From assembly GCA_019058315.1 (NCBI GenBank), contig JAHPZH010000004.1:416001-480000 (forward strand): a stretch of DNA of 64,000 nt, in the 5' to 3' direction. Below are positions 38,016 through 58,108 of the stretch, piece after piece (position 1 is the stretch's first letter; every line of letters starts with the position of its first letter). The notes under the pieces were generated by a model. The model had not been told where the DNA came from, made no database searches, and saw only the letters and a program-made list of their open reading frames with translations. Both the position numbers and the translations under genes were made by a program. This DNA comes from Candidatus Helarchaeota archaeon. Its GTDB lineage: Archaea; Asgardarchaeota; Lokiarchaeia; Helarchaeales; RDOG01.

Positions 38016-38046
38016 TGAAAAAAATAAAAAATATTTATATTGTTTT

Positions 38047-39240: not shown

Positions 39241-39264
39241 TTAAATCACCTCTTATTCTTATTT

Positions 39265-39771: not shown

Positions 39772-39783
39772 ATTTCATCACCT

Positions 39784-40305: not shown

Positions 40306-40452
40306 AAGAACACCCCTTTTGAATCGATTTTATGATTTTTGTAGAATTTGTATACACCATTTTCTCTTTTTTAAGAGTGAAAGATAAATGAAAGTGATTG
40401 AATGAATTGATGAATTTAAAGAAAGGTGTATATCCTTTGAATTTGAAATCCT

Positions 40453-41352
40453 TTAAATCTGAACCATTGGAGTTGATAAAATCTCTGAGATAACTTTCCA
40501 ATATTTTTTTACATCCCAATCTTTTCCTTCCTTTATAATATTTGAAATTTCTTTATATATTTTCCGTATTTTTAAAGATTCAAAATAATTTATCTTTGGG
40601 GCAATTACTGTTAGCATGAAACGTCTATATCCTCCTCTTACATCCTCATCCAGGATTGAATCGAAATAAATGTATCCATCTCTATGGATATTTTCTATAT
40701 TTAACAAAATCCCCTGAGCTGTATTAAGATTTTCTTGCCCATAGATAGATGCAGTGGCAATGAATAACTGAGGACCAACACTTTGAATCGTAAGTTTAAT
40801 TTCCATCTCCATGGGATAAAATGACATCAATTGAGGACCAACTTTTTCATCCCATAAAAAATAAGATAATGAAACTTCATCTTTTTCTTCCTCTGTTATA
40901 GAAGGTGCCAAATCTATTTTCAATGAAGTAAGAGTTTTACTTATTTCTTTAATTATGGACTTAACTTTATTATTACGGTTAATTTTTCCCTTAATACTCG
41001 CAAGAAGGTCTTCTTCTTTAAAGGGTTTTGTTATGTAATCATCTACCCCAAGTATTTTTCCAAGACGAATATCATCTGGTGTGGAGCGAGCAGTTAGAAA
41101 TATAAAGGGTATGTTACTCCAAATTGGATTTTCAGCAACTTTCTTAAAAAAATCATAACCATTCATTTCAGGCATCATTATATCGCTAATTATAATGTCA
41201 GGAAGCTTTTGTAAACCGTTAAGAATCTTAATGGCATTATTTCCATTTTTAGCGGTAATAACTTTAAAATTATTAAATTCTAATGTCATTTTCAAGTTCG
41301 CCAATATTCCAATATTATCTTCAACAACCATTATCAGAGATTTCAACTTCAT
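40453..41352 (-). CDS. Response regulator: receiver + longin/uDENN-like output domain
   Basis: VVED, ISDIMMP, FLTA, YITKP; C-terminal WDEKVGPQLMSFYP..RGG. Confidence 0.8.
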   Translation of the reverse strand: MKLKSLIMVVEDNIGILANLKMTLEFNNFKVITAKNGNNAIKILNGLQKLPDIIISDIMMPEMNGYDFFKKVAENPIWSNIPFIFLTARSTPDDIRLGKILGVDDYITKPFKEEDLLASIKGKINRNNKVKSIIKEISKTLTSLKIDLAPSITEEEKDEVSLSYFLWDEKVGPQLMSFYPMEMEIKLTIQSVGPQLFIATASIYGQENLNTAQGILLNIENIHRDGYIYFDSILDEDVRGGYRRFMLTVIAPKINYFESLKIRKIYKEISNIIKEGKDWDVKKYWKVISEILSTPMVQI

Positions 41353-41384
41353 TCACCAGTTTTTCATTTTATTATTGATTTGAA

Positions 41385-44054
41385 CTAAGTTTTTATACTC
41401 TCACTTTGAATTTCTTTAAATCGAGGTAGAAATACGAAAAATGTCGAACCTTTACCGTACTCACTCTCTACAAATATATCTCCTTTATGTAATCGAGTTA
41501 AATCACGTGCGATAGGAAGTCCTAATCCTGTTCCAGGAATATCATTTACATCTTCAGATCTGAAAAATCGATCAAATAAAAATGGTAAATCTTTTTCATG
41601 TATACCTCTTCCAAAATCGGAAAATCGAACTAAAACTCCATCATTTTTATGTTTATTATATTCACCTTTATAATGGTCTATTACATCTATTTTTATTTTA
41701 GTTTTTTCATCAGAGTACTTTATAGCATTATCGATAATAATTCTAAAGACTTGTCCAATTCTTTTTGAATCTCCATATAATAATATCTGTTCATTTCCTT
41801 CAACTTCTATAGAAATTTCTTTTGCAGATCGATTAGGTTCCATTTGCATTAAAATATCATTAAGCACCTCTAAAGGTTGGTATTGGGACCATTCGATTTC
41901 TAATCTTTTTTCATCTATCCGAGATACTAGAAGAAGATCATTTACTAACTCCTCCAACACTTTAGCATTCTGAGACATCAGAGATAATAGTAATTCTTGC
42001 TGCCCTTTTGATATATTACTTTCATACTTTTTTAAATTATGGAGCGATTGAATGATTACTGTTATCGGTGTGCGTAATTCATGAGAAACGGTAGAAACAA
42101 ATTGTTTCCGCATATTATCAAAATTAACAAATGGTGAAACGTCACGAACTTCAATTATCGCCCCAAGAGAGGATTTATCGTGAAAACTATTGCCCGTAGA
42201 AACGAACTGTAGATGCAATCCTTCCTTTGGTTCAATAGTCACTATTTTAGGTTTTCCTACTAAAAATAATTCTTTTATCTTCTCATCAAAGGTATTCTGT
42301 GGTTCAAAATAATAATCAAATACATTAGGCATCTGCTGATTAAAAATTCTTTGATAATAATCTTTTAAGGTCCTGTTAACTAATGCTAAATTTCCGTCAC
42401 TATCCAGAACTAATATCCCGTCAGAAATTGTGTTGATAATATATTCAATACGTCTTTTCTCTTCAGCCAAACTCCAAGTCTTTTCTATAACTTGTTCGGC
42501 TAAAGAATCTCTAGCTTTAGCAAGCTCCCTAATTGCCTCCTTCCTTTCAGTAATATCTATAAACGATCCCATCATACAGATAGGCTTACCATTTTTATCC
42601 ATTACAGTACTGACGGAAAGTTGGACATCAAAGAATGAATTATCTTTTCTTTTAGCAATTAATTCACCGATCCAACTTCCTTCTTTGCGAAGTTTTTCTA
42701 TTATCATTTGACCGATGTCTTCATTTTGCCAAAATTCTAAAGCAGATTTTCCTAATAATTCTTCTTTATCATCATAACCCCACATTTTAAGAAAGGAATT
42801 ATTCACATATGTTAAAACACCACTAAGATCAGTAATGGCAATGGCATTAATAGACGATGCTATGGCGCTATCCTTTATTTTCAATTCCTTTTCTACCCGC
42901 TTTCTCTCAGTGATGTCCCTAGATATTTGAATTCCCTTTAATTTACCATCTATATCTATAAATGTCCTACCTTTTGTTCCAAACCAGATATAACTACCAT
43001 TTTTATGCTTGATTCGTAACTCCGCATTTGCATTACCCTTATTTAGACCATTTGCTAGACCTCGATATGCTTGATCAAGATCATTTGGATGAACAAAATC
43101 TAAGCTAACCTTTCCTATCAACTCCTCTTTTGAATAACCCATTAATTTTTTATGAATTTTTTCGTTAATATATTCGAATTCAAATTTGTCATTAATAATC
43201 ATAATTAGATCATTTGCGTTTTCTGTTATAAGTCGATATTTTTCTTCAGATTCTTCTAGTTTTTCCTTAGCTTTCATTTTTTCCGAAATATCATCATACA
43301 CAGCAACAATTTCTCCAGTAGATAATTTATATACGAAGTTTTCTCGCCAACCTTCAATTCTACAATCTTTGTAAAATGAAATAGGAAGGTGTTCTGGAGT
43401 CCCAGTTTTCCAGACTCTTTTGAAAACATCAAATAAACCAAATTCTTCTATACCAGGAAAAACATCCATTACAGATTTTCCTATTACTTGTTCTTTTTTT
43501 ATGTTTTCAATTCTCTCAGCAGCTCTATTAAAATCTTTAAAAATAAAATTCTCTCCATCATTAATAGATTCATAAACTGCAACCCCACTACTCATATTTT
43601 CTATAATATTTCGATATTTTTCCTCTGATTCTTTTAACTCTTTTTTTAAGCTTTGTTTCTTTAAAGCGTCGTTTATTTTATAGATTATTTCTTTCATATG
43701 TGTAGGTTTAACAAAATAACCATCAGCACCTTCATCAAGAGCATTTATAGCATTTTCTATTGTGGCATTACCAGTTACTATCATACAAACCATATCGGGA
43801 TGGATTTCTTTGAAATTTTTGAGAATTTCTATCCCATTCATGTCAGGAAGTTTTAAATCAATTATTGCTGCATTAAAATATTGATTCTTTACTTTTTCAA
43901 TAGCGATTCTTCCTGTATTAGCGATTCCGACTTCATAATCTATCTCCTCAAAAATAGAACAAATTGTTTCACATATCCCCTCATCATCATCCACAATTAG
44001 TATTTTTTTTGAGTTAATGCTAATCACTCCTTTATCTTTCAAAAGAAATCTCAT
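41385..44054 (-). CDS. Hybrid sensor histidine kinase (REC + multiple PAS + HisKA/HATPase)
   Basis: IVDDD..IDLKLPD; about 4 PAS domains; SHELRTP, NAIKYS, DFGRG, GTGLGL. Confidence 0.92.
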   Translation of the reverse strand: MRFLLKDKGVISINSKKILIVDDDEGICETICSIFEEIDYEVGIANTGRIAIEKVKNQYFNAAIIDLKLPDMNGIEILKNFKEIHPDMVCMIVTGNATIENAINALDEGADGYFVKPTHMKEIIYKINDALKKQSLKKELKESEEKYRNIIENMSSGVAVYESINDGENFIFKDFNRAAERIENIKKEQVIGKSVMDVFPGIEEFGLFDVFKRVWKTGTPEHLPISFYKDCRIEGWRENFVYKLSTGEIVAVYDDISEKMKAKEKLEESEEKYRLITENANDLIMIINDKFEFEYINEKIHKKLMGYSKEELIGKVSLDFVHPNDLDQAYRGLANGLNKGNANAELRIKHKNGSYIWFGTKGRTFIDIDGKLKGIQISRDITERKRVEKELKIKDSAIASSINAIAITDLSGVLTYVNNSFLKMWGYDDKEELLGKSALEFWQNEDIGQMIIEKLRKEGSWIGELIAKRKDNSFFDVQLSVSTVMDKNGKPICMMGSFIDITERKEAIRELAKARDSLAEQVIEKTWSLAEEKRRIEYIINTISDGILVLDSDGNLALVNRTLKDYYQRIFNQQMPNVFDYYFEPQNTFDEKIKELFLVGKPKIVTIEPKEGLHLQFVSTGNSFHDKSSLGAIIEVRDVSPFVNFDNMRKQFVSTVSHELRTPITVIIQSLHNLKKYESNISKGQQELLLSLMSQNAKVLEELVNDLLLVSRIDEKRLEIEWSQYQPLEVLNDILMQMEPNRSAKEISIEVEGNEQILLYGDSKRIGQVFRIIIDNAIKYSDEKTKIKIDVIDHYKGEYNKHKNDGVLVRFSDFGRGIHEKDLPFLFDRFFRSEDVNDIPGTGLGLPIARDLTRLHKGDIFVESEYGKGSTFFVFLPRFKEIQSESIKT

Positions 44055-44440
44055 TCTTTATCATTATTTTTTAGTTTCTTTATGGTTTGATTCATAAAAT
44101 TTATTATTTTTTCAATATCAAATGGTTTGTAAAGAATTCCATCGACTCCTAGATCTAGAGCTTCTTTGATAAGCTCTTCTACCGAATAGGCTGTCATCAT
44201 AACAATCTTAATAAATGGTCTTATATTTCTTACCCGCTTTAACGTCTCCACTCCGTCAATACCAGGCATCTTGATATCCAAAAAAGCCAGATCATAAAAC
44301 TTCTCACCAATCAACTCTATAGCTTGATAACCATCATTAGCAACATCTACATCAATATTGAAATCCTCAAAAATATCCTTCATAGTTTCACTTATTCCAA
44401 TATCGTCATCAACGATAAGTACATTAATTTTAACTGTCAT
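44051..44440 (-). CDS. Single-domain response regulator
   Basis: IVDDD, LDIKMP, MTAY, KP. Confidence 0.92.
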   Translation of the reverse strand: MTVKINVLIVDDDIGISETMKDIFEDFNIDVDVANDGYQAIELIGEKFYDLAFLDIKMPGIDGVETLKRVRNIRPFIKIVMMTAYSVEELIKEALDLGVDGILYKPFDIEKIINFMNQTIKKLKNNDKE

Positions 44441-45660
44441 TTCATATTCTCCTTTTTTCCAAATGGTATTCTAATAGTAATTGTTGTTCCTATATCTGAT
44501 TCACTTTCGACTCCTATCTCACCTTCATGTAATTCAATGATATTCTTGACTAAAGTTAATCCCAGTCCAATTCCATAGATTTTAGTACTAAAAAGTGGGT
44601 TGAATATTTTGTATAAGTTTATTTTCGGGATACCCATACCCGAGTCTTTGAATATTATTTCGACTAATGAATCATTTTTTTTGGTTTTTATCCCCAAATT
44701 TCCTCCGTTTGGCATAGCCTCAACAGAATTTTTAATAATATTTTGAAATACTTGATGAATTAAAAGTCTATCGATTTCTATTAACGGAAGACTATAATCC
44801 AAATTTAATTTTAATGCAATATTAGTAGGAAATTCGTAATCTTCTAAAAATTCTTTAATTAAGAGATTAATATCTCCCATTTCAAGATTTAATTTATTTA
44901 AGCTTGTTAAATTAAGTAAATGGGTTACTAATTTATTAGACCTTTCAACCTCCTTTTGCATCATTTTAAGATGTTTTCTAATTTTTTCATCCGAATTTTT
45001 AAGTCTTAAAGTTAGGTAATAGATGGAATTATTAATTACTCCAAGAGGATTTCTAATTTCATGCCCAATTTTCTCTGCAAGAATTCCTAAAGTTGCTAAT
45101 TTCTCCTTATATACATAGTCTTCAAAAAATGTTTCAAGTTTTTGGCTATGATATAATAATTCAAGGTGAGTTTCAACAAGCTCCTTGAACTTTCGAATTA
45201 ACTTTTCATATTTTTTAGTATAACTATTCTCTTTTAAATCAAGTACACAGATAGTGCCAAACACTTCTTCATCAGGCCAGAACAATGGAAAACCTAAATA
45301 GGAAATCATTCCTAGTTTAATGTCTGGATTATTATTCCAAACCTCATTTTTTAAAGCATTGGAAATTAATAACTTCTTTTTAGTCTTAATTACTGTCTCA
45401 CAATAAAGTCCCGCTAAAAGTTCCTTATTTCCTACCTTATATGGATTATTGGCTGTTTCGCTGGAGCAAAAAACTTTAATGTAAGGTTGTTCAACTTTCA
45501 TTATTAATGCTGCTGGGACTTGAATGATTTCTGCTAAAATATTTACAATTTCCTGCCATTTTTCAATTATTTTGTTATATATGATTATATTTTCTTTATT
45601 GAACAGCTTATTTGACAGTGTTTTGTTCCTATCTATAATAATTTCATTTTTATTAGTTAT
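44437..45660 (-). CDS. GAF-domain histidine kinase (start uncertain, upstream of the listed ATG 45501)
   Basis: In-frame upstream KWQEIVNILAEIIQVPAALIMKV (GAF first helix); GLYCETV..YLGFPL..GTICVLD; GHEIRNPL. Confidence 0.8.
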   Translation of the reverse strand: MTNKNEIIIDRNKTLSNKLFNKENIIIYNKIIEKWQEIVNILAEIIQVPAALIMKVEQPYIKVFCSSETANNPYKVGNKELLAGLYCETVIKTKKKLLISNALKNEVWNNNPDIKLGMISYLGFPLFWPDEEVFGTICVLDLKENSYTKKYEKLIRKFKELVETHLELLYHSQKLETFFEDYVYKEKLATLGILAEKIGHEIRNPLGVINNSIYYLTLRLKNSDEKIRKHLKMMQKEVERSNKLVTHLLNLTSLNKLNLEMGDINLLIKEFLEDYEFPTNIALKLNLDYSLPLIEIDRLLIHQVFQNIIKNSVEAMPNGGNLGIKTKKNDSLVEIIFKDSGMGIPKINLYKIFNPLFSTKIYGIGLGLTLVKNIIELHEGEIGVESESDIGTTITIRIPFGKKENMK

Positions 45661-45667
45661 ATCACTT

Positions 45668-47146
45668 TTAGCTTTTATTCTTCAACCCCCCTTCAATCAT
45701 ATTTGGTAATTTAATTATAAAAGTCGTTCCTACTCCAACTTTGCTTTCGAATTCTATTGTACCTTTATGTAACTCAATTATATCTTTCACAATTGGCAAA
45801 CCCAATCCAATCCCTTTAGCTTTAGTACTAAAAAGTGGTTCAAATATCTTTTGATAATTTTCTTCTGGAATCCCTACCCCTGTATCTTCAAAATATAATT
45901 CTATCATATTATCAATTTTTTTCGTTTTAATAACAATAATACCACCTTTTGGCATAGCTTGGATTGAATTGGTGATTAAATTCTGAAAAACTTGTTGTAA
46001 TTTAATCGGATCTATGAGACATTTTGGCAATTTTGAATCTAAATCTAATTCTATAATTATCGATGCAGGAACATTAATGTTTGAAAGAGTTGCCTTAATT
46101 AATGAATTAATATCTCTCATTTCAAGGATTGGTGAACTTACTCTAGCAAAATCAAGTAAATCCTTTAAGATCCTGTTAGACTTCTCCACTTCTCTTTGTA
46201 ATATATTAAGATGTTTCCTGACTTTTTTGTCACCATTTTTAAATCTCATATTTATAAAATAAATTGAATTACTGATTACTCCCAGAGGATTACGAAGTTC
46301 GTGACCTACACTTCCTGCAAGTTTTCCCACGGCAGCTAATTTTTCCTTACGTATCAATTCTTTTTGAGCTTCCTTAAGTTCTTTTGTTCTTTCTTCTATT
46401 TTTGTCTCTAATTCTTCATTAAGAAGACGAAGTGCCACTTCCATGTTCTTCCTTTCTGTTATATCCCGCAAAGAAGCAATACACGCCCTCTCACCCTTCC
46501 AACCCGTCTTAACTACCCTCATCTCTACTATCTTGGTCTCACCTTTTCTACTAACAACATTTATTTCGGTATTTTCTCCTACTACAACCGGAAAACCGAA
46601 TAGTTCTCCTATTAGATTTTCCCTATTACGATCAAAAAGGGATTCTGAAGCAGGATTAGCAAAAAGAACTACTCCATTTTTATCTACAACTACAACGCCA
46701 TCTGAGTTTTTTTCAATGAGAGTTCGGAATTTATCTTCACTTTGTCTTAGTCTATGTTCAAGTTGTTTACGCTCGATAGATCGTATCAAAGTCGGTTTTA
46801 ATAAATATTCAATAAAATTTTCTTTGATTAAATAATCTTGTGCTCCTTCTTTTAATGCTCTAAATCCTAATTTTTCATCATCTAGAGCTGTCAATATTAT
46901 TATTGGTATATTCGGAGCATAATTATAGGTCTTTTTAAATGTTTCAAATCCATAACTATCTGGAAGAGTAAGGTCTAGTATAATTACATCAATATCGCTA
47001 TTGGCTAAAATTTTAAAAGCTTCAGATAAATTTGTTTTGTGGGTTAATTGAAAAAAATCCTCGTCAACTGATAATAATTCCTTTATTAATCTGGCATCTC
47101 CAGGATTATCTTCAACCAGTAATATCCTAATTAGTCTATCTTCCAT
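45668..47146 (-). CDS. Hybrid histidine kinase (REC-PAS-HisKA-HATPase)
   Basis: LVEDNPGD..LDLTLPD; PAS; GHELRNPL; DTGVG, GIGLGL. Confidence 0.92.
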   Translation of the reverse strand: MEDRLIRILLVEDNPGDARLIKELLSVDEDFFQLTHKTNLSEAFKILANSDIDVIILDLTLPDSYGFETFKKTYNYAPNIPIIILTALDDEKLGFRALKEGAQDYLIKENFIEYLLKPTLIRSIERKQLEHRLRQSEDKFRTLIEKNSDGVVVVDKNGVVLFANPASESLFDRNRENLIGELFGFPVVVGENTEINVVSRKGETKIVEMRVVKTGWKGERACIASLRDITERKNMEVALRLLNEELETKIEERTKELKEAQKELIRKEKLAAVGKLAGSVGHELRNPLGVISNSIYFINMRFKNGDKKVRKHLNILQREVEKSNRILKDLLDFARVSSPILEMRDINSLIKATLSNINVPASIIIELDLDSKLPKCLIDPIKLQQVFQNLITNSIQAMPKGGIIVIKTKKIDNMIELYFEDTGVGIPEENYQKIFEPLFSTKAKGIGLGLPIVKDIIELHKGTIEFESKVGVGTTFIIKLPNMIEGGLKNKS

Positions 47147-47257
47147 TTCTTTTTTTCCATTAATTTTTATTCAATAACCTATATACTTTTTTAAATTAAT
47201 TCTAAATCTTTCAGATTTACTCATAATTCAAACCATTTATTCAATTCATTTTTTTTA

Positions 47258-48778
47258 TTATTGTCTCTTGAATAATTCATCAATTTTGCCAATTTCCTCC
47301 ATTTCAATATGAGTTGGACTTCCAGCAATAATCCCGATTACATTTTTGAAAGGGTTACCAATATGTAATCCTTTATTATCAATGATAATTTCACGAATGT
47401 CTTTATCATGCATAGAACCACGCATTTTAAGGACTGCTAATCCCCTATGCATTTTTCCGTACATTTCAACATATCTAAGTAAGATAATAAGATCGGTTAT
47501 TGTGGATATATGCATTTCTGTAATGGAAGTGCCACCCATTAAAGTTGGAGTAGTAGCTGTGAAAAGTCCGGCAATTTCTTTTTGTTTTATAAATGAAGTT
47601 ATTCCAATTACGAATTCTCGGAAACTTTTTTTTGTAGAAACACGTTCTAAAGCAGACAAGCTATCAATTGCAATGCGTTCTGGCTTAAAATCATTTATAA
47701 CTCTTTTTAAATTTATTAAATGATCTTCTAAATTAGCACTTTCTGGATATACACAAACAACTTTAAGTTTGCCTTCTTCTTCAAATGGAACAAAATTTAT
47801 TCCCCAACCTAGTGCATTTCTAAAAAGTTGTTGTCGGCTCTCCTCAAATGCAAAATATATACAATTTTCTCCTCTTTCTAGTCCACCATTTATAAACATT
47901 GTAGACATGAGGGTTTTTCCAGTTCCTGTAGCACCTGAAATAAGAATGATTGAATCTCTATAAAATCCACCCCCACACATTTCATCTAATTCTTTTATAC
48001 CCGAATAAATACGAATATTTGAGGATTCTTGTTTCAACTCAATTGCGGAAAGTGGGATGACTATAATGCCTTCATTTGGTATAATTGTAAAAGGAAATTC
48101 TCCCTTTTGATGATAAGTTCCCCGAAATTTCAGAATTTCTACAGTGCGACGACGTTCTTCATCATCCAAAACATTACGTAAAATAACCACATTATCTGTA
48201 ACAAATTCTTCGACATCCAACCGTGTAACAGAACCATATTCGTCGATTCTCTCTGCTGTTAAAATAGATGTGACTTTTAATTTTTTTAAAGTTGAAGCTA
48301 ATCTAAATATTTCATCCCGTACAACTGAGTGATCTTTAAACTGAGAAAAAATTGCACCTAAAGAGTCTAAAGAAATTCGTTTTGCGTTAATTTTCTGGAT
48401 AGCATATGTAATTCTGGATAATAAAGCTTCCAAATCATAATCACCCGTTACAATTTTCTTCATTCCTGGTTCGGGAGATGCATTTACAAATAACCATTTA
48501 CCATTTCCCTCCCATTTTTCTATATCCCAATCAAAACCTAACATATTTTCGCGGATATCTTCAGGAGTTTCTTCGAAAGTAACAAAAACCCCATTTTCAT
48601 TTGATTTTATAATTCCCTCTGCAAGAAATTGAGCAGCAAAAACTGTTTTTGCGCTACCTGATGTTCCTGTAACGAGTGTAGTACGAAATTTCGGCAAACC
48701 TCCATCAGAAATTATATCAAAACCTGGAATTCCAGTAGGTATTTTTTGAATTTGTTTATTCTTTTTATCTTCCTTCAT
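47258..48778 (-). CDS. kaiC: Circadian clock ATPase/kinase KaiC (copy 2)
   Basis: Two RecA domains (GTSGSAKT, GATGTGKT), FEE in both, HISTITD phosphosite motif, KMRG, IIAGSP A-loop plus tail. Confidence 0.95.
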   Translation of the reverse strand: MKEDKKNKQIQKIPTGIPGFDIISDGGLPKFRTTLVTGTSGSAKTVFAAQFLAEGIIKSNENGVFVTFEETPEDIRENMLGFDWDIEKWEGNGKWLFVNASPEPGMKKIVTGDYDLEALLSRITYAIQKINAKRISLDSLGAIFSQFKDHSVVRDEIFRLASTLKKLKVTSILTAERIDEYGSVTRLDVEEFVTDNVVILRNVLDDEERRRTVEILKFRGTYHQKGEFPFTIIPNEGIIVIPLSAIELKQESSNIRIYSGIKELDEMCGGGFYRDSIILISGATGTGKTLMSTMFINGGLERGENCIYFAFEESRQQLFRNALGWGINFVPFEEEGKLKVVCVYPESANLEDHLINLKRVINDFKPERIAIDSLSALERVSTKKSFREFVIGITSFIKQKEIAGLFTATTPTLMGGTSITEMHISTITDLIILLRYVEMYGKMHRGLAVLKMRGSMHDKDIREIIIDNKGLHIGNPFKNVIGIIAGSPTHIEMEEIGKIDELFKRQ

Positions 48779-49080
48779 TTTTTTTCACTCTTATTATCTG
48801 TTTTAGCTTGATTTATTAACTCCAAACCTACTAAAACCTTCTCTCTATCAGATAAATCACCAATAATCATTCGAAGTGGAGGAGGTAATTTTTTAATCAA
48901 AGTTGGTGTAGCTAATATTTTTTCATCCTCAGCTAATTGTGGACTTTCTAGAACATTAATAATTTTCAATTCATATTTTCCTTTTAAATCGGATTCACAT
49001 ATTTGACATAGATTCGAAATAGCTTTCTGGGACCTTGAACTATCACCTGTTATGTATAATCTTAAAATATATTTTTCCAA
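48775..49080 (-). CDS. kaiB: Circadian clock protein KaiB (copy 2)
   Basis: LRLYITG..PQLAEDEKILATPTL..PPP..IIGDLSDREKVLVGL. Confidence 0.95.
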   Translation of the reverse strand: MEKYILRLYITGDSSRSQKAISNLCQICESDLKGKYELKIINVLESPQLAEDEKILATPTLIKKLPPPLRMIIGDLSDREKVLVGLELINQAKTDNKSEKK

Positions 49081-49129
49081 ATCAATTCACTAAGTTCATT
49101 TATTCTGTATTTTATTTCATTTACAATAT

Positions 49130-50644
49130 TTATTCGTTAAACATATCTCTAAATCGCTCAATTTCATCTTTAGTAAAATGTTGTGGAACTCCTGACAAAA
49201 TACCTGTGATATTTCTAAATGGTTTTCCTATATGCATCCCTTGATTATCAATAGTGAACTCTCGAATTTGTTTATCGTGTATAGATCCTCTCATTTTAAG
49301 TACTGTTATACCTCGCCGCATTTCTCCAAACATTTCTACATATCGAAGTAATATAATAGAATCTGTAATAGTTGATATGTGAGTCTCCGTTATAGAAGTG
49401 CCACCCATTAATGAAGGAGTAGTAGATGTAAAAAGACCTGCAATTTCTTGATGTTTTATAAACGATGTTATACCAATTACAAACTCACGAAATCCCTTGG
49501 GTATCGAAACTCGTTCGAGGGCAGAAAGACTATCCACTGCTATACGATTTGGTTTAAACTCTTGGATGATTTTCCTTATTTTAATAAGATGGTCTTCGAG
49601 ACCAGCAGTTTCAGGATATTCACAAACAACCTTAATTTTACCAAGTTTCTCCATTTCCTCAAAATTAATTCCCCAACCAATTGCATTTCTAAAAAGTTGT
49701 TCTCTACTTTCCTCAAAGGCAAATAATAGACATTTTTCACCATTTTTCGCACCACCAGCAATAAATTCGGTTACCATAAGTGTTTTACCAGTTCCTGTAG
49801 CACCTGATACTAGGATAATAGAATCTCGAAAGATTCCGCCACCACACATCCCATCTAAAGTGATATTGCCAGATGAAATGCGTACCTCAGAAGATTTTTG
49901 TTTTAATTCAATTGCAGAAAGTGGTATCACTATAATCCCTTGATTCGGAATAATTGTAAAGGGATATTCTCCTTTATTATGAGTTGCACCCCTGAACTTA
50001 AGTATCTCCATCGTTCTACGACGTTTTTCTCCTTCTAGAACATTTCTTAGAATTACCACGTTATCTGAAACAAATTCTTCTACACCATAACGAGCAATTT
50101 CACCATATTCTTGAATCCTTTCCGCTGTTAAAATAACCGTTACTCTCAATTTCTTAAAAGCTGAAGCAATACGGAAAAGTTCTTTACGAATATTTGTAGT
50201 ATCAGTGAATTGGGTAAAAATTGCGCTAATTGAATCCATAGCAACTCGTTTTGCTCCAACTTTATTAATGGCATGTTCAATACGAACTAAAAGAGCCCCT
50301 AAATTAAATTCTCCGGCTTCAATATTCTCAATTTCTGGAACTGGTGATGCATCTACAAAAACCCATTTTCCATCTTTTTCCCATCTAACTATATCAAAAC
50401 CTAGACTAATCATATTTCTTCTTATATCATTAGGGGATTCTTCAAAAGTAATAAAAACGCAATTAGCATTAAATTTTTCAATGCCTTTAGCAAGAAATTG
50501 TACAGCAAAGACTGTTTTAGCGCTACCTGAAGATCCCGTAACCAATGTTGTACGTTCTTTGGGAAGACCTCCATCGGAAATAATGTCAAACCCTGTTATT
50601 CCAGTTTTAATTTTTTCGACTGGTAATAGTTGTTCTATTATCAT
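49130..50644 (-). CDS. kaiC: Circadian clock ATPase/kinase KaiC (copy 1)
   Basis: GSSGSAKT, GATGTGKT, FEES twice, HISTITD, ILSGVP A-loop plus tail; ATG 5 nt after GAGGTGA. Confidence 0.95.
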   Translation of the reverse strand: MIIEQLLPVEKIKTGITGFDIISDGGLPKERTTLVTGSSGSAKTVFAVQFLAKGIEKFNANCVFITFEESPNDIRRNMISLGFDIVRWEKDGKWVFVDASPVPEIENIEAGEFNLGALLVRIEHAINKVGAKRVAMDSISAIFTQFTDTTNIRKELFRIASAFKKLRVTVILTAERIQEYGEIARYGVEEFVSDNVVILRNVLEGEKRRRTMEILKFRGATHNKGEYPFTIIPNQGIIVIPLSAIELKQKSSEVRISSGNITLDGMCGGGIFRDSIILVSGATGTGKTLMVTEFIAGGAKNGEKCLLFAFEESREQLFRNAIGWGINFEEMEKLGKIKVVCEYPETAGLEDHLIKIRKIIQEFKPNRIAVDSLSALERVSIPKGFREFVIGITSFIKHQEIAGLFTSTTPSLMGGTSITETHISTITDSIILLRYVEMFGEMRRGITVLKMRGSIHDKQIREFTIDNQGMHIGKPFRNITGILSGVPQHFTKDEIERFRDMFNE

Positions 50645-50663
50645 TTTTTTCACCTCTTTTTTT

Positions 50664-50945
50664 TTAATCTGTAAAAGTCTCTAAATCAAGTCCTAACAAA
50701 ACCTTGTCTTTATTAGAGAGATCACCTATGATTCTTCGTATTGGTGGAGGTAGTTCTTTAATTAATGCAGGTGTGGCGATGATTTTCTCATCCTCAGCTA
50801 ATTGTGGTCTTTCGAGAACATCAATTATCTCGATTTCATATTTATCCTTTAAATTTTCCTCACACATACGACGTAAGTTAATAATTGCTCTCTCAGATTG
50901 TGGCGTATGGCCTGTAATGTATAACCTCAACAAAGATTTATTCAT
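50664..50945 (-). CDS. kaiB: Circadian clock protein KaiB (copy 1)
   Basis: LRLYITG..PQLAEDEKIIATP..PPPIRRIIGDLS..VLLGLDL. Confidence 0.95.
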   Translation of the reverse strand: MNKSLLRLYITGHTPQSERAIINLRRMCEENLKDKYEIEIIDVLERPQLAEDEKIIATPALIKELPPPIRRIIGDLSNKDKVLLGLDLETFTD

Positions 50946-51105
50946 AAAATACCTCCATTTAAAGAAATTTTTTTATTTTTTGAAAAGTAATTTTTTAAAT
51001 TTAATTTAAACGCTAATTTTACCATTTTAATCCTCCATTTGTATTTTAATTCTATTTTCATGTTCTGTCTCAATTTTTTTTGAATGATTTGATTTTCTAA
51101 ATATA

Positions 51106-52011
51106 TTATTCATAGATTTTTTCCTCGATAATTCTTTTATCCTCTTTTCTTCTGTCGGATTCGCTCCATAGAGATTGTTTTGCAATCATTGAGTATTTAC
51201 GATAATAAGATACTAAGTATCCCATAAGTTTGAGTGCTAAAAAATGCCCTTCCTCGGTATATACCACCGATTTCTGATAAGGGCTAGAATTAATCTTCTT
51301 TTTTAAAGCATGACTATGAATTTCTACGACATCTCTTGGTCCTGCATTTAAAAATCCCATTTCCTCAGCTATAGCTCTGAGTTGTTCGTTTGTATTATGT
51401 TTTACCTTATAGATCCGTTGCTCAATCGCCAATTCTATTAAATTTTCATATTTTTTAACTAATTTATAAAAATTATCTGGCAGGGATTCACGTAAAGGTG
51501 CTAAACCATAAAGACGAGCTGTGACAACAGTTTTAGGAAAATCTGACAAGCGTTCGAGTAATTCCAACTCATTCTGCTCTAACTTGCGTAATTCTATAGA
51601 CTCTAGTTTAACTAACAAGTGTTTTCTTTCAATGGAATGTCGTAATGCGCTCTTTAAAATTGAAGTATCTACCAATCCCTTTATTAAATAATCTTGCGCT
51701 CCCTCTCTTATTGCCTGGATCGATAGATCGTCATCATTTGTTCCAGTCAATATTATAATTGGCACTTTTGGAACGATAGAATTTATTCTAGAAAATGTTT
51801 TAATCCCCTGACTATCTGGTAGTCCAAGATCAAGCAAAATTATATCAAAAGTTTCCTCTTCAAGATATTTTATAGCTTTTGATAGAGAATTTGCGCACTT
51901 TAAATTTGCGTCTAGCTTTGTATCGGATAATAATTCCTTTATAAGTCGTATATCTGCTAAGTTATCTTCAATTAATAAAATTTTATGCTCTATATTATCC
52001 ATAAACTTCAC
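51106..52011 (-). CDS. Receiver domain + KaiA-C-terminal-like (RsbU-N fold) protein, KaiA3-type
   Basis: Intact REC ([16 protein letters not shown]); C-terminal [30 protein letters not shown] resembles KaiA (..IIEIH..LCEMYR); directly upstream of kaiB. Confidence 0.72.
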
Positions 52012-52454
52012 TCCAATGGTAATTTAACAATTGTAAACCAAAAATCTTCAATTGATTTTATTACTCTAATGAACTTTTCAAGTTCAACCGGTTTTGTCAC
52101 ATAGGCGTTAGCATGTAAATTATAACTTTTAAATACATCTTCTTCGGCTCTAGATGTCGTTAAAACAACTATAGGAATTCTCTTAAGGTTATCGTTACTT
52201 TTTATTTCTGCTAAAACCTCACGTCCATCCTTTTTAGGTAGGTTAAGATCAAGGAGAATCAAGTCTGGCCGAGGTGCATATAAATATTTACCTTTTTTGA
52301 GTAGAAAATCTAAGGCTTCAACACCATTATAGGCAACATGTAAATTATTAATCACTTTACCCTCTTTTAAGGCCTCTTGTGTTAATCTTACATCTCCTTG
52401 GTTATCTTCTACCAATAATATCTCAATATTTCTAACTGTATTTTTATCATTCAT
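52008..52454 (-). CDS. Rcp1-type single-domain response regulator
   Basis: [42 protein letters not shown]. Confidence 0.92.
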
Positions 52455-53905
52455 AATTTTTCATCCTTCAATAAAATTTCATTTTTAATTTCAATTCTTT
52501 CTGGAATTGTGAAATAAAACGTTGCTCCCTCCCCAAGTTGCGAATCCACCCAAATTTTCCCCTTATGACGTTCAACAATTTTCTTACATAGAGCTAGACC
52601 TATCCCAGTCCCTGGATATTCTTCTCTAGTGTGTAATCTCTGGAATATAACAAAAATACGTTCAAAATATTCTGGATCTATACCAATACCATTATCTTGA
52701 ACTGAAAAAATCCAATTCTCATTTTTATTCTCAGCTGAGATGAGAATTCGTGGAGGTGCTTTATTACGGAACTTAATAGCATTGCTAATAAGATTTTGAA
52801 ATAGTTGTTCCATCTGTGATCCATCAGCCATAACTTCAGGTAAAGAATTTCGGATAATTATGGCTGAATTCTCTTCGATTAATTTTGTCAAATTATTAAG
52901 TGCTCTATCCAAAATTTTATCGCAATCAACTCGATCAAAAGGTTTACCTCTTGTTCCCACTCTTGAGTAAGTTAATAAATCATTAATAAGTTGTTTCATT
53001 CTGTTTGTCCCATCAACAGCATAATAAATGAAATCATCTGCTTCGTCATCAAGTTTACCTTTATAACGCTTTGCTAGAAGCTGAACATAACTTGAAATCA
53101 TTCGTAAGGGTTCTTGTAAGTCGTGAGAAGCTATATATGCGAATTGTTCTAACTCTTTATTTGAAATTTCTAACCTATTTAAAATGATTTTTAATTTTTC
53201 CTCTGCTCTCTTACGATCGGATATATCTATTCCTACTCCTATCAGAAATATATCTTTATGTATTTCCTTATATTTTCCCATAAAGTAAAAAGGAGTTGAA
53301 ATACCGTTTTTTGATATAAAATTTATTTCAAAATTTAATCTCCCTTTATCAAAAACTTCTTTTAATTTATCATTTAGTATATTTTTCTCTAAAAAAAAAT
53401 CAAGGATGTTCATATTTGAAATTTCTTTTAAAGAATACCCAGAAATTTTTTCTAAGTTTTTATTCCACCTTATAAGTCTTCTATTTTTATCAATTATAAA
53501 AAAAATACCTGGTAAACTATTTATTATAAACTTAGATAGATTTTTTTCTCTTTGTAAATCTTTTTTCATATGGTTACGAATTCTTTCTTTAGAGTGTTCC
53601 AGTTCCAATGTTAGGGATAACATTCCTTTATTTGTTTCTGTCAGTTCCGTTTGTAAAGTCTGTATGGTATTTTCTGCTTCCTTAAGTTTTCTTTTTAATT
53701 CTTTGACGCTCATAGTTAATACTTCTTGAATGTTTCGAAGTTCCAGGGTACGTTGCTCGACTTGCTGTTCTAATTTCTCATTAGCTTTTTCCAATTCCAA
53801 TGTCAAAACCATAATTCCCTTATTAGTTTCCTCCAATTCTATTTGTAAGGAGCGAACTATATTTCTCTCTTCTTGCAATTGTTTTTGTAATTTATTATTG
53901 CTCAT
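52451..53905 (-). CDS. PAS histidine kinase (Cph1-type HK core) with two N-terminal ELxETNxG coiled-coil units
   Basis: [37 protein letters not shown]. Confidence 0.92.
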
Positions 53906-54039
53906 AGAACACCCCGCATCACAATTTCTCCAGTTCTATCACCGATTGAGGCGAGATTTGACTCATTAAGCTCAGTCAGTAAAAAAAATATGGTATTTTT
54001 TTGTCCTTTAAGTCGATTTTTTAATTTTTTAATGTTCAT
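53902..54039 (-). CDS. 45-aa ORF carrying a degenerate ELxETN coiled-coil unit (possibly frameshifted)
   Basis: MNIKKLKNRLKGQKNTIFFLLTELNESN..; AGGGA SD; ATGA overlap with the next gene; VIELEKL continues in another frame. Confidence 0.45.
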   Translation of the reverse strand: MNIKKLKNRLKGQKNTIFFLLTELNESNLASIGDRTGEIVMRGVL

Positions 54040-54141
54040 TAAAATCCCTAACATATTAAAAAGAATTTTCTATCTTTATATAAATCTAATAATATTTTTT
54101 GTAAAATTGAATAAGTAGAACTATATTTTTTCGAAATCAAT

Positions 54142-54963
54142 TTAATTTTCTCCATTCTTAATCTGTTCTTCATTAATAGGAAGTTTAATTGTGAAAATAG
54201 AACCCCTATTAAATCTACTTTTAACTTGTATTGTTCCATTATGTTGCTCAATAATATATTTCGCTATTGGCAGCCCCAACCCCATACCTTTAACTTTAGT
54301 GCTGAAAAGCGGCTCAAATATTCTTTTCAAATTCTCCTTTGGTATGCCCGCACCCGTATCTTTAATTTTTATTTCAATTATATTATTTTTAATAAGAGTC
54401 TTTATCTCTAAAACTCCTTCTTCTTGCATTGCTTGAATGGCATTAATAATGATATTTTGAAAAGCTTGTTGAATTTTTAAAGGATCTAAACTAATTAATG
54501 GTAAATTTTCACCAAGATTTAACAATACTTCAATATTACCATTTATGAGAGTATTGGCTATTGAATTTTTAATTAATAAGTTTATATTACCCTTTTCTAT
54601 ATTAGGTTCCTTTACTATTGCAAAAAAAAGTAGATCGGTGATTATTCTATTTGCCCGAATCACTTCTTTTTGAATAATATTAAGGTGTTTAATTATTTTC
54701 TGATCCACATCTTTAAGTCTCATATTTAAGTAATAAACTGAATTACTAATAACTCCAAGGGGATTCCGTAGCTCATGTCCAACACTTCCTGCAAGCTTTC
54801 CGATCACTGCTAATTTTTCCTTTGAAAACAATTCGTCCTTAGTGCGATCCAACTCCAATGTTAAAGCAACTATTCCACGGTTAGTCTCATCAAGTTCTTT
54901 CTGTAAATAATGAATATTTTCATTTGCCATTCTAAGCTTTTCCATTAATTCGCTATTGTTCAT
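54142..54963 (-). CDS. Histidine kinase with N-terminal ELDETNRG coiled-coil unit and no sensor domain
   Basis: GHELRNPL, NAIQAM, DTGAG, GMGLGL. Confidence 0.9.
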   Translation of the reverse strand: MNNSELMEKLRMANENIHYLQKELDETNRGIVALTLELDRTKDELFSKEKLAVIGKLAGSVGHELRNPLGVISNSVYYLNMRLKDVDQKIIKHLNIIQKEVIRANRIITDLLFFAIVKEPNIEKGNINLLIKNSIANTLINGNIEVLLNLGENLPLISLDPLKIQQAFQNIIINAIQAMQEEGVLEIKTLIKNNIIEIKIKDTGAGIPKENLKRIFEPLFSTKVKGMGLGLPIAKYIIEQHNGTIQVKSRFNRGSIFTIKLPINEEQIKNGEN

Positions 54964-55964
54964 ATTTTTCCCCTCACAACGACCACTGTTGCATCATCAT
55001 CATCTTTTGCTAAAGAACGTAATAAAACTTGAGCAATTTTCGTAGCTGATTCATTTTGAAGATAATAAAAATTATCCCAATTCCAATGTGATATTATACC
55101 ATCTGAATGAAGAATCATGATATAACTAGGATCCCAATGTTTCTCATTGATTACTGGATTTGGGCTTTTAATCCCAAGTATTCCACGTCTTATAATAAAG
55201 TCTATTTTTTCTGAAGAACCAATAACCCTCACTGTAATGTTTCCAATGCTAGCAAGAGTGATTTTTTGCTTTGTCCAATCAAAACGTGCTAGAGCCATTA
55301 CAACGCCACGTGTAGCACTACATGTACGTCCAGTGCCACGAAAAATTTGGTCTAATGGCTGGTCATAATGTTTCATTATATAATTCCATGCAGTTTTAGC
55401 AGCGCGATGTGCAAATTGTCCATGTCCTAGACCATCAATTACTCCTACTAATGCGCTGTGATTCCATCGTTTAATTATAAATGAGTCTCCATTAAGACTC
55501 ATCCCTAATCTTGGACGTGATGCACCATCTATTAAAAAAGGACAGGAACCCGATATTCGCTTATTTTTTATATAATATTTACAAATAATATGCGTATATC
55601 CCGGCTTTGAACTAATTTCAAGTTCGTCCATTATTCTATTAACAATTCCTAAACCATAACCCAAGCTTTTCTTTGTTGAATACCCATTAGTAATTGATTT
55701 TTCAATATTATTAAATCCTGGTCCACTATCCACGGATTCAATTTGAACACCTTGCTTTTTACCATTATTAAGGGAGCTAATTATCAATTCTCCTTTATTA
55801 GCATGTTTTATCAAATTAGTAGCAAGTTCATTAATAACTAGTTCAATATTTTCAGATGTTAATGTATCAAATCCTATAGCAACGCCTAATTGTTTTACTA
55901 TTTGGCGTGCGAGTAAAATATCGCTTCGATTTTTTATTATTATAATTTCTTTGATTTTTTTCAC
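54960..55964 (-). CDS. rsbX: RsbT-like ATPase domain fused to RsbX-type PP2C (SpoIIE) phosphatase
   Basis: ELATNLIKHA, DSGPG, GYGLG; then NGD, IDGLGHG, SDG, DDATV. Confidence 0.88.
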   Translation of the reverse strand: MKKIKEIIIIKNRSDILLARQIVKQLGVAIGFDTLTSENIELVINELATNLIKHANKGELIISSLNNGKKQGVQIESVDSGPGFNNIEKSITNGYSTKKSLGYGLGIVNRIMDELEISSKPGYTHIICKYYIKNKRISGSCPFLIDGASRPRLGMSLNGDSFIIKRWNHSALVGVIDGLGHGQFAHRAAKTAWNYIMKHYDQPLDQIFRGTGRTCSATRGVVMALARFDWTKQKITLASIGNITVRVIGSSEKIDFIIRRGILGIKSPNPVINEKHWDPSYIMILHSDGIISHWNWDNFYYLQNESATKIAQVLLRSLAKDDDDATVVVVRGKI

Positions 55965-55971
55965 GCTACTT

Positions 55972-56379
55972 TTATTTAAGCCATTTAATAATAATCACTT
56001 GTGTTCCTTTACCTACCTTGGAATCAATCTCCATTTCATCCATGAGTCGTTTAGATCCAGGTAATCCCATTCCTAGTCCATTACCAGTACTATAACCTTC
56101 TTGCATTGCTAATTCAATATCTTGGATGCCCGGACCATTATCCTTAAAAATTAACTTGAGCCCAACCTTATTTTCAGAATTAACTTTCATCCATATCATT
56201 TTTCCCGAACCAGCAAATTTATAAATGTTCCTAGCTAGCTCAGAAACTGCTGTAATTATTCTAGTAACGTCTGTCATACCAAATCCCATCGCATTAGCCG
56301 CATTACGTGCCATTCTCCTTGCATTTATTATATCCGTTTCAGAACTAATAGTAACTATATTTTGAGTTGTTAGGGTCAT
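55972..56379 (-). CDS. rsbT: Stressosome switch kinase RsbT
   Basis: TAVSELARNI, DNGPGI, GYSTGNGLGMGLPGSKRLMDE. Confidence 0.95.
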   Translation of the reverse strand: MTLTTQNIVTISSETDIINARRMARNAANAMGFGMTDVTRIITAVSELARNIYKFAGSGKMIWMKVNSENKVGLKLIFKDNGPGIQDIELAMQEGYSTGNGLGMGLPGSKRLMDEMEIDSKVGKGTQVIIIKWLK

Positions 56380-56753
56380 AATTGATGATCACTGCCTATT
56401 AAGTCAATAGCACTATCAACATCAAGCGATGTGATTGCATTACCTAATGTTAGTCCCAATTGTGTTGTTGTAATGGCAACACTAGGACGCATTCCTGCTA
56501 TAACTGTCACACCGCCCATCAAGGCTACCATTTGAGCTGTTTCCGCTATTGTACGGGCAAAAAATGAATCTACTGTCTCAACCATTGAAATATCCATGAC
56601 TAATCCCTTCACCGTATATTTCTCCATCGCATCCAACACTTTCTCCTGTAATTCAGAAACGGAACTATCATCCGGATCGGAGGGCACCGTAACTATCAAT
56701 ATTTCACGAATCTTATTTACTGAAATGCTCTCAAACTTCATTCTATACATCAC
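56376..56753 (-). CDS. rsbS: Stressosome antagonist RsbS (STAS)
   Basis: DISMVETVDSF (phospho-Ser motif), GMRPSVAIT. Confidence 0.93.
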   Translation of the reverse strand: MMYRMKFESISVNKIREILIVTVPSDPDDSSVSELQEKVLDAMEKYTVKGLVMDISMVETVDSFFARTIAETAQMVALMGGVTVIAGMRPSVAITTTQLGLTLGNAITSLDVDSAIDLIGSDHQL

Positions 56754-56770
56754 CCACTAACTTAAACATT

Positions 56771-58042
56771 TCATTTTTTACTATTTTTGTTAATTATTTT
56801 CAATTCCAGTACTTCTAAAGCAAGTTCTAATCCTTCAGCTAAAGATTTACATGTACGGACACCCGAGAGATCAATACCAAGATGAATTAATGTTTGCGCA
56901 ATAGCAGGATTTATTCCAGTTAAAACTACTTTTGAGCCTAGTAAACGAACTGCATTTATTGTATCAACGAGATGTTGGGCAATTCCAGTATCAATAGCTG
57001 GGACACCCGTAATATCTAATAAAGCGACTTTAGAGTGTGTATCTACGATTCTTTGTAGTAAATGTTCCATAATTTGCTGTGTGCGTTCGCTATCTAACAT
57101 GCCTATTATTGGAGTAATTACAACGCCTTCCCAGATTTGTATGACTGGAGTAGAAGATTCAAGTATATCTTCAGCTCTCTTCTCTAATGATTTTCGAAGG
57201 GTGATATCTGAAGCCACTGACGCAAGTGCGGTGATATTTGCGCCCCCAGTAGTAGATGTTGACATGGAGAAATATCTTTTTTGTCCATCTTCCCCAATAA
57301 ATTCAACTTCATAGCCAAGTTCGGGGGTTTTTGTTTTAAAAACTTTTTTGAATATCTCTAATAGTCGATTAGACTCATTAGGAGATACTAAATCAATTAA
57401 TGATGTCTCGACAACATCTTGATATTTGAAACCTAATCGATCGCTTAATGCTTTGTTACTATAAAGAATTTGGCCATTTGTATTGTGTAATATTAAAGCA
57501 TCTTGTGTGTTTTTTACTAAAGTTTGATATTTTTCCACATTTAACATTAGCGTTGAAATATCAATAAAATGTCCAACAGTCTGACCCAGAGATTCTAAAT
57601 TTTTAACATCCTCATTGGTATATCCACCTGCTTTATTAGCAACAGATATCGTGCCAATAGGATTTCCATGATGTCGTAAAGGAATACCTAAAAAAGAATT
57701 GATAGGTGGATGCCCTTCTGGAATACCTCCACTTTCTGGATCTGTAGATGGGGAATTAGAGATGTAACTCTTATTAGTTCTTATAGGAACCAACCAAAGA
57801 TGTTTGCCAACTAGAGCTGATGGTGGGAATACAACTTCTTTTATTGGCATTTTACATGCTTCCCAACCCATCCCATTTATCCCAAGGGTATGATAAGAAC
57901 CTTCCGACATAATGCCAGTTTGACCATACTCACTTTTTGTTAGTTCTACCGCATAATCTATAAGGATTTGTCCTTGTTCATAAATATCTTTTTTACTTCT
58001 CATTTTTGCTATTAAAATATCATTTTTTTCATTATTACTCAT
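56771..58042 (-). CDS. rsbR: RsbR-type stressosome sensor: GAF-PAS-STAS
   Basis: GIPEGHPPINSFLGIPL GAF; PAS; STPVIQIWEG..LDSERT..DITGVPAIDT STAS. Confidence 0.9.
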   Translation of the reverse strand: MSNNEKNDILIAKMRSKKDIYEQGQILIDYAVELTKSEYGQTGIMSEGSYHTLGINGMGWEACKMPIKEVVFPPSALVGKHLWLVPIRTNKSYISNSPSTDPESGGIPEGHPPINSFLGIPLRHHGNPIGTISVANKAGGYTNEDVKNLESLGQTVGHFIDISTLMLNVEKYQTLVKNTQDALILHNTNGQILYSNKALSDRLGFKYQDVVETSLIDLVSPNESNRLLEIFKKVFKTKTPELGYEVEFIGEDGQKRYFSMSTSTTGGANITALASVASDITLRKSLEKRAEDILESSTPVIQIWEGVVITPIIGMLDSERTQQIMEHLLQRIVDTHSKVALLDITGVPAIDTGIAQHLVDTINAVRLLGSKVVLTGINPAIAQTLIHLGIDLSGVRTCKSLAEGLELALEVLELKIINKNSKK

Positions 58043-58108
58043 TCATGTTTCCTCCATTTTTTAAATTTGTTTCATAAAATTAATTTCGTTTCTTATTATC
58101 CCCTCTTT

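Follow-up and report, generated by a model that had tools for sequence, protein, structure and literature searches.

The window analysed here is a 64,000-nucleotide (nt) stretch of the genome of a Candidatus Helarchaeota archaeon, positions 416001-480000 of the 604-kb contig JAHPZH010000004.1. Its minus strand carries between 47258 and 50945 four intact genes in the order kaiB-a, kaiC-a, kaiB-b and kaiC-b, and the open reading frame (ORF) calls lie exactly where a first-pass annotation, made from the DNA letters, had seen two tandem kaiB-kaiC pairs. Immediately upstream of them stands a fifth gene that we identify, from protein matches and a structural model, as kaiA3. These genes constitute a KaiA3-KaiB3-KaiC3 system of bacterial origin in an Asgard chromosome, in which the B-C module is doubled behind a single KaiA3. 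On balance we lean towards the view that, by analogy with characterized systems, it would run a slow phosphorylation cycle and behave at least as a damped oscillator.

By sequence, both KaiC proteins are of the KaiC3 type (group III), i.e. clock-type double-domain proteins distinct from the standard cyanobacterial KaiC1. The Pfam KaiC model recognizes two domains in each (E 2.5e-114 for KaiC-a and 4e-121 for KaiC-b), their scores with the NCBIfam circadian KaiC model NF006799 (Table 1) compare with a cut-off of 408 bits, and TIGR02655 is passed with 661 and 647 bits, respectively, at a cut-off of 546. With the models for archaeal single-domain KaiC and ArlH, both proteins remain far below all cut-offs (for ArlH, for example, 89-101 bits against the 215 required). 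The first-pass annotation was therefore right to regard them as clock-type proteins rather than generic archaeal KaiC/ArlH ATPases. Its label "cyanobacteria-like", on the other hand, does not fit, since they belong to the KaiC3/KaiB3 subgroup, whose members nearest to the window proteins come mostly from non-cyanobacterial bacteria. The window KaiCs are 67-70% identical to the KaiC3 proteins of Crocosphaera, Microcystis and Hydrococcus but only 55-57% to the second KaiC of these cyanobacteria, which is KaiC1 because its gene adjoins a Pfam KaiA gene. Identity of KaiC-a to the KaiC3-type proteins of Chloroflexota and other bacteria is higher, 72-75%. In a search covering 5.8 billion protein clusters, the identity of the best matches did not exceed 75% for KaiC-a or 70% for KaiC-b; those that carry a name belong to Chloroflexota, Dehalococcoidia, Acidobacteriota and Chroococcales-type cyanobacteria, and the best 80 loci in species-representative genomes are all bacterial.

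Phylogeny against the KaiC families, which had been proposed as a check, leads to the same assignment. In a careful tree of 53 KaiCs, a 100/100 branch splits KaiC1 from a clade that holds both window KaiCs and all KaiC3-type sequences. KaiC2 of Rhodobacter is more distant, matching KaiC-a with 306 bits compared to about 600 for KaiC1, and the long C-terminal coiled-coil extension of the KaiC2 type is absent from the window KaiCs, which measure 504-506 amino acids (aa) against 568 for the Rhodobacter chain. The top match in the PDB is 8ZN5, a reconstructed ancestral KaiC (PMC12081879).

The gene at 51106-52011, directly upstream of kaiB-a, lies outside the region considered in the first-pass annotation, whose gene set was incomplete in this respect. 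Its product is, on the strength of alignments and a fold model, KaiA3. Residues 11-119 match Pfam Response_reg, with the acceptor Asp61 present, and the whole protein has full-length colinear matches of 41-50% identity to the gene preceding kaiB3-kaiC3 in Crocosphaera, Roseiflexus and many others; these two are among the genera where KaiA3 was defined (PMC11372060). When the C-domain was folded alone with AlphaFold2 (AF2), the mean predicted local distance difference test score (pLDDT) was 91.8, and KaiA C-domains made up 8 of the 10 best PDB matches in a fold search, including the top 5 (prob 0.97-1.0, template modelling (TM) score 0.45-0.61, with weak E-values of 0.05-0.2). The same search with the full-length model returned receiver domains only. 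Canonical KaiA (Pfam PF07688) has no match in the whole genome; a control genome and three cyanobacteria do match. Among the 130 related loci with enough upstream DNA, a full KaiA3 is encoded in 54 and the C-domain only in 41-45. In the latter, the gene before kaiB codes for a stand-alone KaiA-like domain without a receiver, matching only residues ~130-275 of the window KaiA3 (e.g. L010:5203-5592, L098, L114 and L119).

Alignments to Thermosynechococcus KaiC and to KaiC1 of Crocosphaera were used to read individual KaiC residues. As the first-pass annotation had reported, both double-domain KaiCs keep the S-T phosphosite pair, the upstream Thr (SITE), the catalytic EE and the A-loop segment. 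More precisely, the equivalents of T426, S431 and T432 (TSITE.HISTITD) and the catalytic glutamates (CI FEE, CII FEES) are found in both, the CII Walker A is GATGTGKT, the B-loop is undeleted, and both proteins end in a KaiC3-type tail. A C-tail of the kind that KaiA binds had also been claimed; the tail is indeed there, but tails of the KaiC3 kind do not respond to canonical KaiA and respond instead to KaiA3 (PMC5520375, PMC11372060). The two KaiBs match the Pfam KaiB family (Table 1), are of the long form and retain the features earlier associated with a fold-switching KaiB, namely PPP and a C-terminal Gly segment (GLDL/GLEL). The positions equivalent to K58, G89 and D91 (Synechococcus elongatus numbering) read K/G/D in KaiB-a and K/G/E in KaiB-b, G89 being conserved in both, and Glu occurs at the D91 position in 9 of 89 KaiB homologues.

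The CI Walker A motifs of the window KaiCs read GSSGSAKT and GTSGSAKT, with Ala replacing the second Gly of the KaiC1 motif GTSGTGKT. The GSAKT motif had been taken for a special variant; it is present in both proteins but is a trait of the clade, the residue before the CI Walker lysine being Ala in 123, Gly in 28 and Ser in 9 of 160 KaiC3-type loci. Published work calls the CI Walker A conserved and leaves the Ala change unmentioned (PMC5520375, PMC6989803), and a literature search for the GSAKT motif together with KaiC found nothing. We also scored the C-terminal tail with the motif E-[ILVM]-x-[RK]-x3-[LMF]-F, a stricter pattern having separated the loci poorly. Of 100 loci with a KaiA3-type gene upstream, 94 have Ala or Ser at the CI Walker position and 83 have the tail motif; of 30 loci without such a gene, 15 and 14 do, respectively. 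Both window KaiCs carry the Ala as well as the tail motif. About half of the latter 30 loci form a group of the Gemmatimonadota type, in which CI has GSGKT and the tail is basic and of another kind. The KaiC3 loci of this type (L018, L032, L049, L057, L061, L070, L076, L082, L123, L129 and L131) have no upstream KaiA3-type gene, and their KaiCs combine the canonical GSGKT of CI with a C-tail that is long and basic (ERxW...RRR). This suggests that the KaiC tail and the CI Walker-A residue co-vary with KaiA3 dependence.

The bacterial affinity of these proteins raises the question of whether they belong to the genome at all. The host is an Asgard archaeon, given its archaeal small-subunit (SSU) rRNA, a eukaryote-type actin detected at 448 bits, and the Ras, Arf and Gtr1/RagA-type GTPases encoded in the window. 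Its assembly (5.8 Mb in 12 contigs) is 94% complete with an estimated contamination of 6.6%, and this figure, together with the purely bacterial origin of all close relatives and the occurrence of KaiC3-type genes in only one of 400 genomes of the phylum, this one, could be taken to mean that the kai cluster is of bacterial provenance and reached this archaeal genome only through a faulty join or faulty binning. We consider this very improbable. The contig is 604 kb long, and genes for Ras and Gtr1/RagA-type GTPases lie 8 kb away from the cluster on the same strand. They are joined to the kai genes also in an independently built Logan contig of 23,880 nt, which spans 37940-57400 with zero differences and at an even depth of 17.5. 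This check stems from a sediment metagenome, the one public run that holds the stretch and probably the source sample, and so it does not represent an independent sample. In addition, the kai genes have a G+C content (GC) of 0.28-0.34 and a third-position G+C content (GC3) of 0.16-0.28, values that fall among those of 217 long ORFs from the same contig (GC3 0.205, standard deviation 0.031), whereas the related bacterial loci mostly have a GC of 0.42-0.70. This suggests that codon use has been ameliorated and that the block has been retained in the host for a long time. An assembly duplication can be dismissed as well, since KaiC-a and KaiC-b are 68% and KaiB-a and KaiB-b 66% identical; the doubling is therefore old.

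The genes that flank the kai genes have counterparts in bacteria. Homologues of the PAS kinase (40-49% identity) are found 1.2-2.8 kb upstream of kaiC3 and in the same orientation in the bacterial loci L007, L134, L168, L171, L029, L108, L072 and L062. Of 97 loci with sufficient upstream DNA, 12 have a regulator immediately preceding KaiA3 that is 60-68% identical to the single regulator, and of 117 loci, 12 have a full-length homologue of the receiver-PAS kinase (32-39% identity) that begins 30-270 nt downstream of kaiC3. Thus, the three flanking genes recur at matching positions in about a tenth of the bacterial loci, with L168 having all of them. Because these kinases and the receiver protein accompany the kai genes in some bacterial loci, the entire 8-kb block 45668-53905 was probably acquired from a bacterium.

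In published systems, KaiA3 stimulates KaiC3 phosphorylation and KaiB3 opposes it, the trio producing in vitro a damped cycle of ~24 h that is temperature-compensated (PMC11372060), and the group III KaiCs of Cyanothece and Synechocystis oscillate when combined with the KaiB and KaiA3 of the same organism (PMC12081879). On its own, KaiC3 hydrolyses ATP slowly and in a temperature-dependent manner, and it can form mixed oligomers with KaiC1 (PMC6989803). By analogy with Synechocystis and Cyanothece, each of the window KaiCs would form a hexamer that autophosphorylates on the Ser-Thr pair, a reaction that KaiA3 would promote by binding to the exposed C-terminal tail. Slow ATP hydrolysis in CI would then allow fold-switched KaiB to bind at the B-loop and shift the hexamer to dephosphorylation, with a slow phosphorylation cycle, at least a damped oscillator, as the outcome. 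We would expect two populations of KaiC hexamers, or mixed hexamers, with one KaiA3 pool stimulating both and a KaiB resetting each. Since both KaiCs keep the tail motif and the Ala Walker-A that travel with KaiA3, they probably do share one KaiA3 pool, and the modules would be coupled through it. The activity of KaiA3 itself would be gated by phosphorylation of its receiver, and this receiver and the flanking kinases would bring environmental or energy signals in and pass the state of the system out. The receiver of KaiA3 (51106-52011) is 50% identical over 123 residues to that of the receiver-PAS kinase (45668-47146). Given this similarity, one kinase may address both receivers and so link input and output.

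Several points weigh against this reading. The ATPase of KaiC3 alone is not temperature-compensated (PMC6989803), the KaiA3B3C3 rhythm obtained in vitro is weak and damped, and a daily cue may be absent in the sediment habitat of the host. No RNA runs holding the locus are listed, which says nothing about expression. The association of the tail and Walker-A residue with KaiA3 consists of counts over related sequences and is descriptive only. As to the second module, KaiC-b sits at the divergent end of the clade, with 8 deviations where the median is 1; its tail is altered, reading EIGK where homologues usually have EIER; and KaiB-b has Glu at the D91 position. Because of this divergence, the tail changes and the Glu of KaiB-b, the second module may behave differently or respond poorly to KaiA3.

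An hourglass or switch role has been proposed for KaiBC in Rhodobacter, Legionella and Pseudomonas. The window genes might likewise form a non-oscillating system, an hourglass or a phosphorylation switch that reports the energy or stress state of the cell (ATP/ADP, redox) to the neighbouring two-component and stressosome proteins, and we regard this as possible rather than probable. It would suit a non-phototrophic host from sediment and a cluster surrounded, over 20 kb of one strand, by genes for kinases and receivers and by RsbR/S/T-type genes; moreover, the activity of KaiA3, with its phosphorylatable receiver, may simply follow kinase input, and the temperature dependence of the KaiC3 ATPase (PMC6989803) points the same way. 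However, what distinguishes a free-running oscillator from an hourglass in the systems known so far is a KaiA-type activator, cycling was observed in vitro with both KaiA3B3C3 sets examined (PMC11372060, PMC12081879), and all the residues needed for an ordered cycle are kept in both window KaiCs. A cycling KaiA3-KaiB3-KaiC3 system remains our preferred reading.

The divergence of the second module could also mean that only the first pair works with KaiA3, the second being a drifting redundant copy or having a KaiA3-independent role. The branch of KaiC-b is longer than that of KaiC-a (0.45-0.58 versus 0.26-0.30), and over 197 clade-conserved columns KaiC-b deviates at 8 and KaiC-a at 4, i.e. 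twice as often, in addition to the EIGK tail in place of the usual EIER. KaiB-b, apart from its D91E change, starts with TTG and has no clear ribosome-binding site before it. We nevertheless judge this unlikely, since the genes are intact and host-like in GC3, the KaiCs keep at least 189 of the 197 conserved columns and all catalytic motifs, none of the KaiC-b deviations falling within one, and 8 deviations lie inside the range of the clade (maximum 9). In addition, the translationally coupled ATGA overlap between kaiB-b and kaiC-b suggests that the two are co-expressed. At the opposite extreme, this non-phototrophic Asgard archaeon might run two coupled KaiC oscillators on a shared KaiA3 pool, which differ in period or phase (e.g. 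daily and tidal, or fast and slow) or operate as mixed hexamers. We put this forward as a speculative proposal of low probability. The first-pass annotation had named two periods, hetero-hexamers and tidal/redox timing as possible consequences of the duplication, and none of the results computed here speaks for or against these ideas.

The KaiC3 clade is star-like both in a quick tree of 111 KaiCs and in the careful tree, and therefore neither the donor phylum nor the time of duplication, nor whether it took place in this lineage, is readable from them. Neither tree makes the two window KaiCs each other's closest relatives, but forcing them together is not rejected (approximately unbiased (AU) test, p = 0.31). 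They have 7 rare residues in common, where the null distribution averages 1.7 and reaches at most 9. We discarded these residues as evidence for a duplication, as many being shared with unrelated bacterial proteins and most being Ile or Asn, as expected from AT bias. Likewise, a grouping of KaiC-a with KaiC1 and L031_KaiC_1 in the quick tree was flagged as a meeting of long branches and was not retained.

Clock systems of this kind are known, but neither the host nor the gene order seen here had been reported for them. The usual orders among the 160 related loci are A3-B-C and B-C, and A3-B-C-B-C occurs in none of them. The closest arrangement consists of two complete KaiA3-KaiB-KaiC triplets, found in four loci from bacteria and metagenomes (L031:2113-7500, L109:5128-10488, L145:2062-6967 and L157:4680-10488). 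The upstream KaiC of these tandem triplets is of a divergent subtype, 54-59% identical to KaiC-a and with the CI Walker sequence GSSGSGKT; it joined the cyanobacterial KaiC1 proteins in the quick tree on long branches, and this placement is unsure. On the chromosome of Crocosphaera watsonii WH 8501 (5544436-5557545; L087, L090), the standard kaiA-kaiB-kaiC cluster and a kaiA3B3C3 cluster lie only ~10 kb apart. Within the phylum, a different KaiB-KaiC pair is present in 6 of 400 genomes, all of one family (f4; L002, L091-L095).

The genes of the block are listed in Table 1. The kai genes are separated by 10 nt and 49 nt, followed by the 4-nt ATGA overlap of the kaiB-b stop and kaiC-b start codons. 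For kaiC-a, the ATG at 50644 is more likely to be the true start, because it is preceded by an AGAGGTG motif and because the database copy P0001 has 504 aa.

Table 1. Genes of the kai block, in the direction of transcription; positions are those of the window.
Gene	Position	Strand	Features
PAS histidine kinase	52451-53905	-	First gene of the block, candidate input kinase; Pfam PAS, HisKA, HATPase_c
Single-domain response regulator	52008-52454	-	Pfam Response_reg
KaiA3	51106-52011	-	Receiver domain (Asp61) and KaiA-like helical domain
kaiB-a	50664-50945	-	93 aa; PF07689 E 6e-30; GGAGG motif before ATG
kaiC-a	49130-50653	-	504-507 aa, likely start 50644; NF006799 722.5 bits
kaiB-b	48775-49080	-	101 aa, TTG start; PF07689 E 3e-29; NF006798 121 bits (cut-off 110)
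kaiC-b	47258-48778	-	506 aa; NF006799 725.8 bits
Receiver-PAS histidine kinase	45668-47146	-	Last gene of the block, candidate output/feedback kinase; Pfam Response_reg, PAS, HisKA, HATPase_c

Directly upstream of the block and on the same strand (54960-60202, minus) lies a stressosome-like gene set. It codes for a small STAS protein, an RsbT-like kinase, a fusion of a kinase with a SpoIIE phosphatase, and two sensors with STAS domains, of which the first also has an NMT1-type binding domain, HAMP and PAS and the second GAF and PAS. Downstream of the kai block (38047-41352, minus), after the kinases, are genes for Ras-like and Gtr1/RagA-like GTPases and for a receiver protein whose C-terminal domain is unassigned. 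Between 38 and 60 kb, the window is a single-strand run of signalling genes throughout.

A comparison with known systems may help to place the window system, whose function is predicted. It most resembles the KaiA3-KaiB3-KaiC3 system of Synechocystis sp. PCC 6803 and its orthologues in Chroococcales, Roseiflexus, Chloroflexus and Rhodospirillum (PMC11372060; "group III" of PMC12081879). The three protein types and the order A3-B-C are alike, as are the ST phosphosites, the T426 equivalent and the KaiC3-type tail; beside the KaiC identity to the Crocosphaera, Microcystis and Hydrococcus proteins given above, KaiA3 is 41-45% identical over its full length. It differs in its archaeal host, in the doubled B-C module behind one KaiA3, in its flanks of a PAS kinase, a receiver protein and a receiver-PAS kinase, and in that the genome has no KaiA1B1C1 to couple to (no Pfam KaiA and two KaiB genes only). 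With the KaiABC clock of S. elongatus and Thermosynechococcus it has in common the double-domain KaiC (~56-60% identity), the phosphosites, catalytic glutamates, B-loop and A-loop position, and a KaiB of ~60% identity that keeps K58, G89 and, in KaiB-a, D91. In contrast to that clock, it is without canonical KaiA, has GSAKT and not GTGKT in the CI Walker A, and its KaiC tail is shorter and different. Nor does the genome contain a SasA-type KaiB-like kinase domain, another difference from standard KaiABC.

The KaiA-less hourglass of Rhodobacter sphaeroides (KaiC2 type, PMC10076222) is, like each window pair, a KaiB-KaiC pair in a non-cyanobacterium. The window KaiCs, however, are distant from its KaiC2 by the bit score given above, are without the long C-terminal extension and have a KaiA-type partner. 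The other Asgard pairs (family f4) are from the same phylum and also have a double-domain KaiC beside KaiB, but this KaiC is only 43-50% identical, ends right after the A-loop position and is without the SITE Thr, and the KaiB stops short of the GLDL segment; L002, the only one of these loci that was inspected, showed no KaiA3. The tandem A3-B-C-A3-B-C arrays (L031, L109, L145 and L157) resemble the window in having Kai modules side by side. Each of their modules has its own KaiA3 and their KaiCs are of different subtypes (54-59% versus 70-73% identity to KaiC-a), while the window has a single KaiA3 and two KaiCs of the same subtype.

The arrangement of one activator with two B-C modules represents a natural test of how Kai modules are coupled or insulated from each other, and it involves only five small proteins, all expressible in E. 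coli. The CI Walker-A Ala and the KaiA3-linked tail motif, neither of which was found described in our literature search, suggest determinants of KaiA3 dependence and of a slow CI ATPase. Nothing direct about the origin of eukaryotic clocks follows from the presence of these genes in an Asgard archaeon. Should two coupled oscillators indeed operate in this host, Archaea would thereby gain their first self-sustained protein clock of the KaiA type. For a long time, KaiA-type activators were believed to occur in cyanobacteria only, until in 2024 KaiA3 widened their range to a few bacteria; with a complete and intact KaiA3-KaiB3-KaiC3 set, an Asgard archaeon would widen it further, to a second domain of life and to a heterotroph living in the dark.

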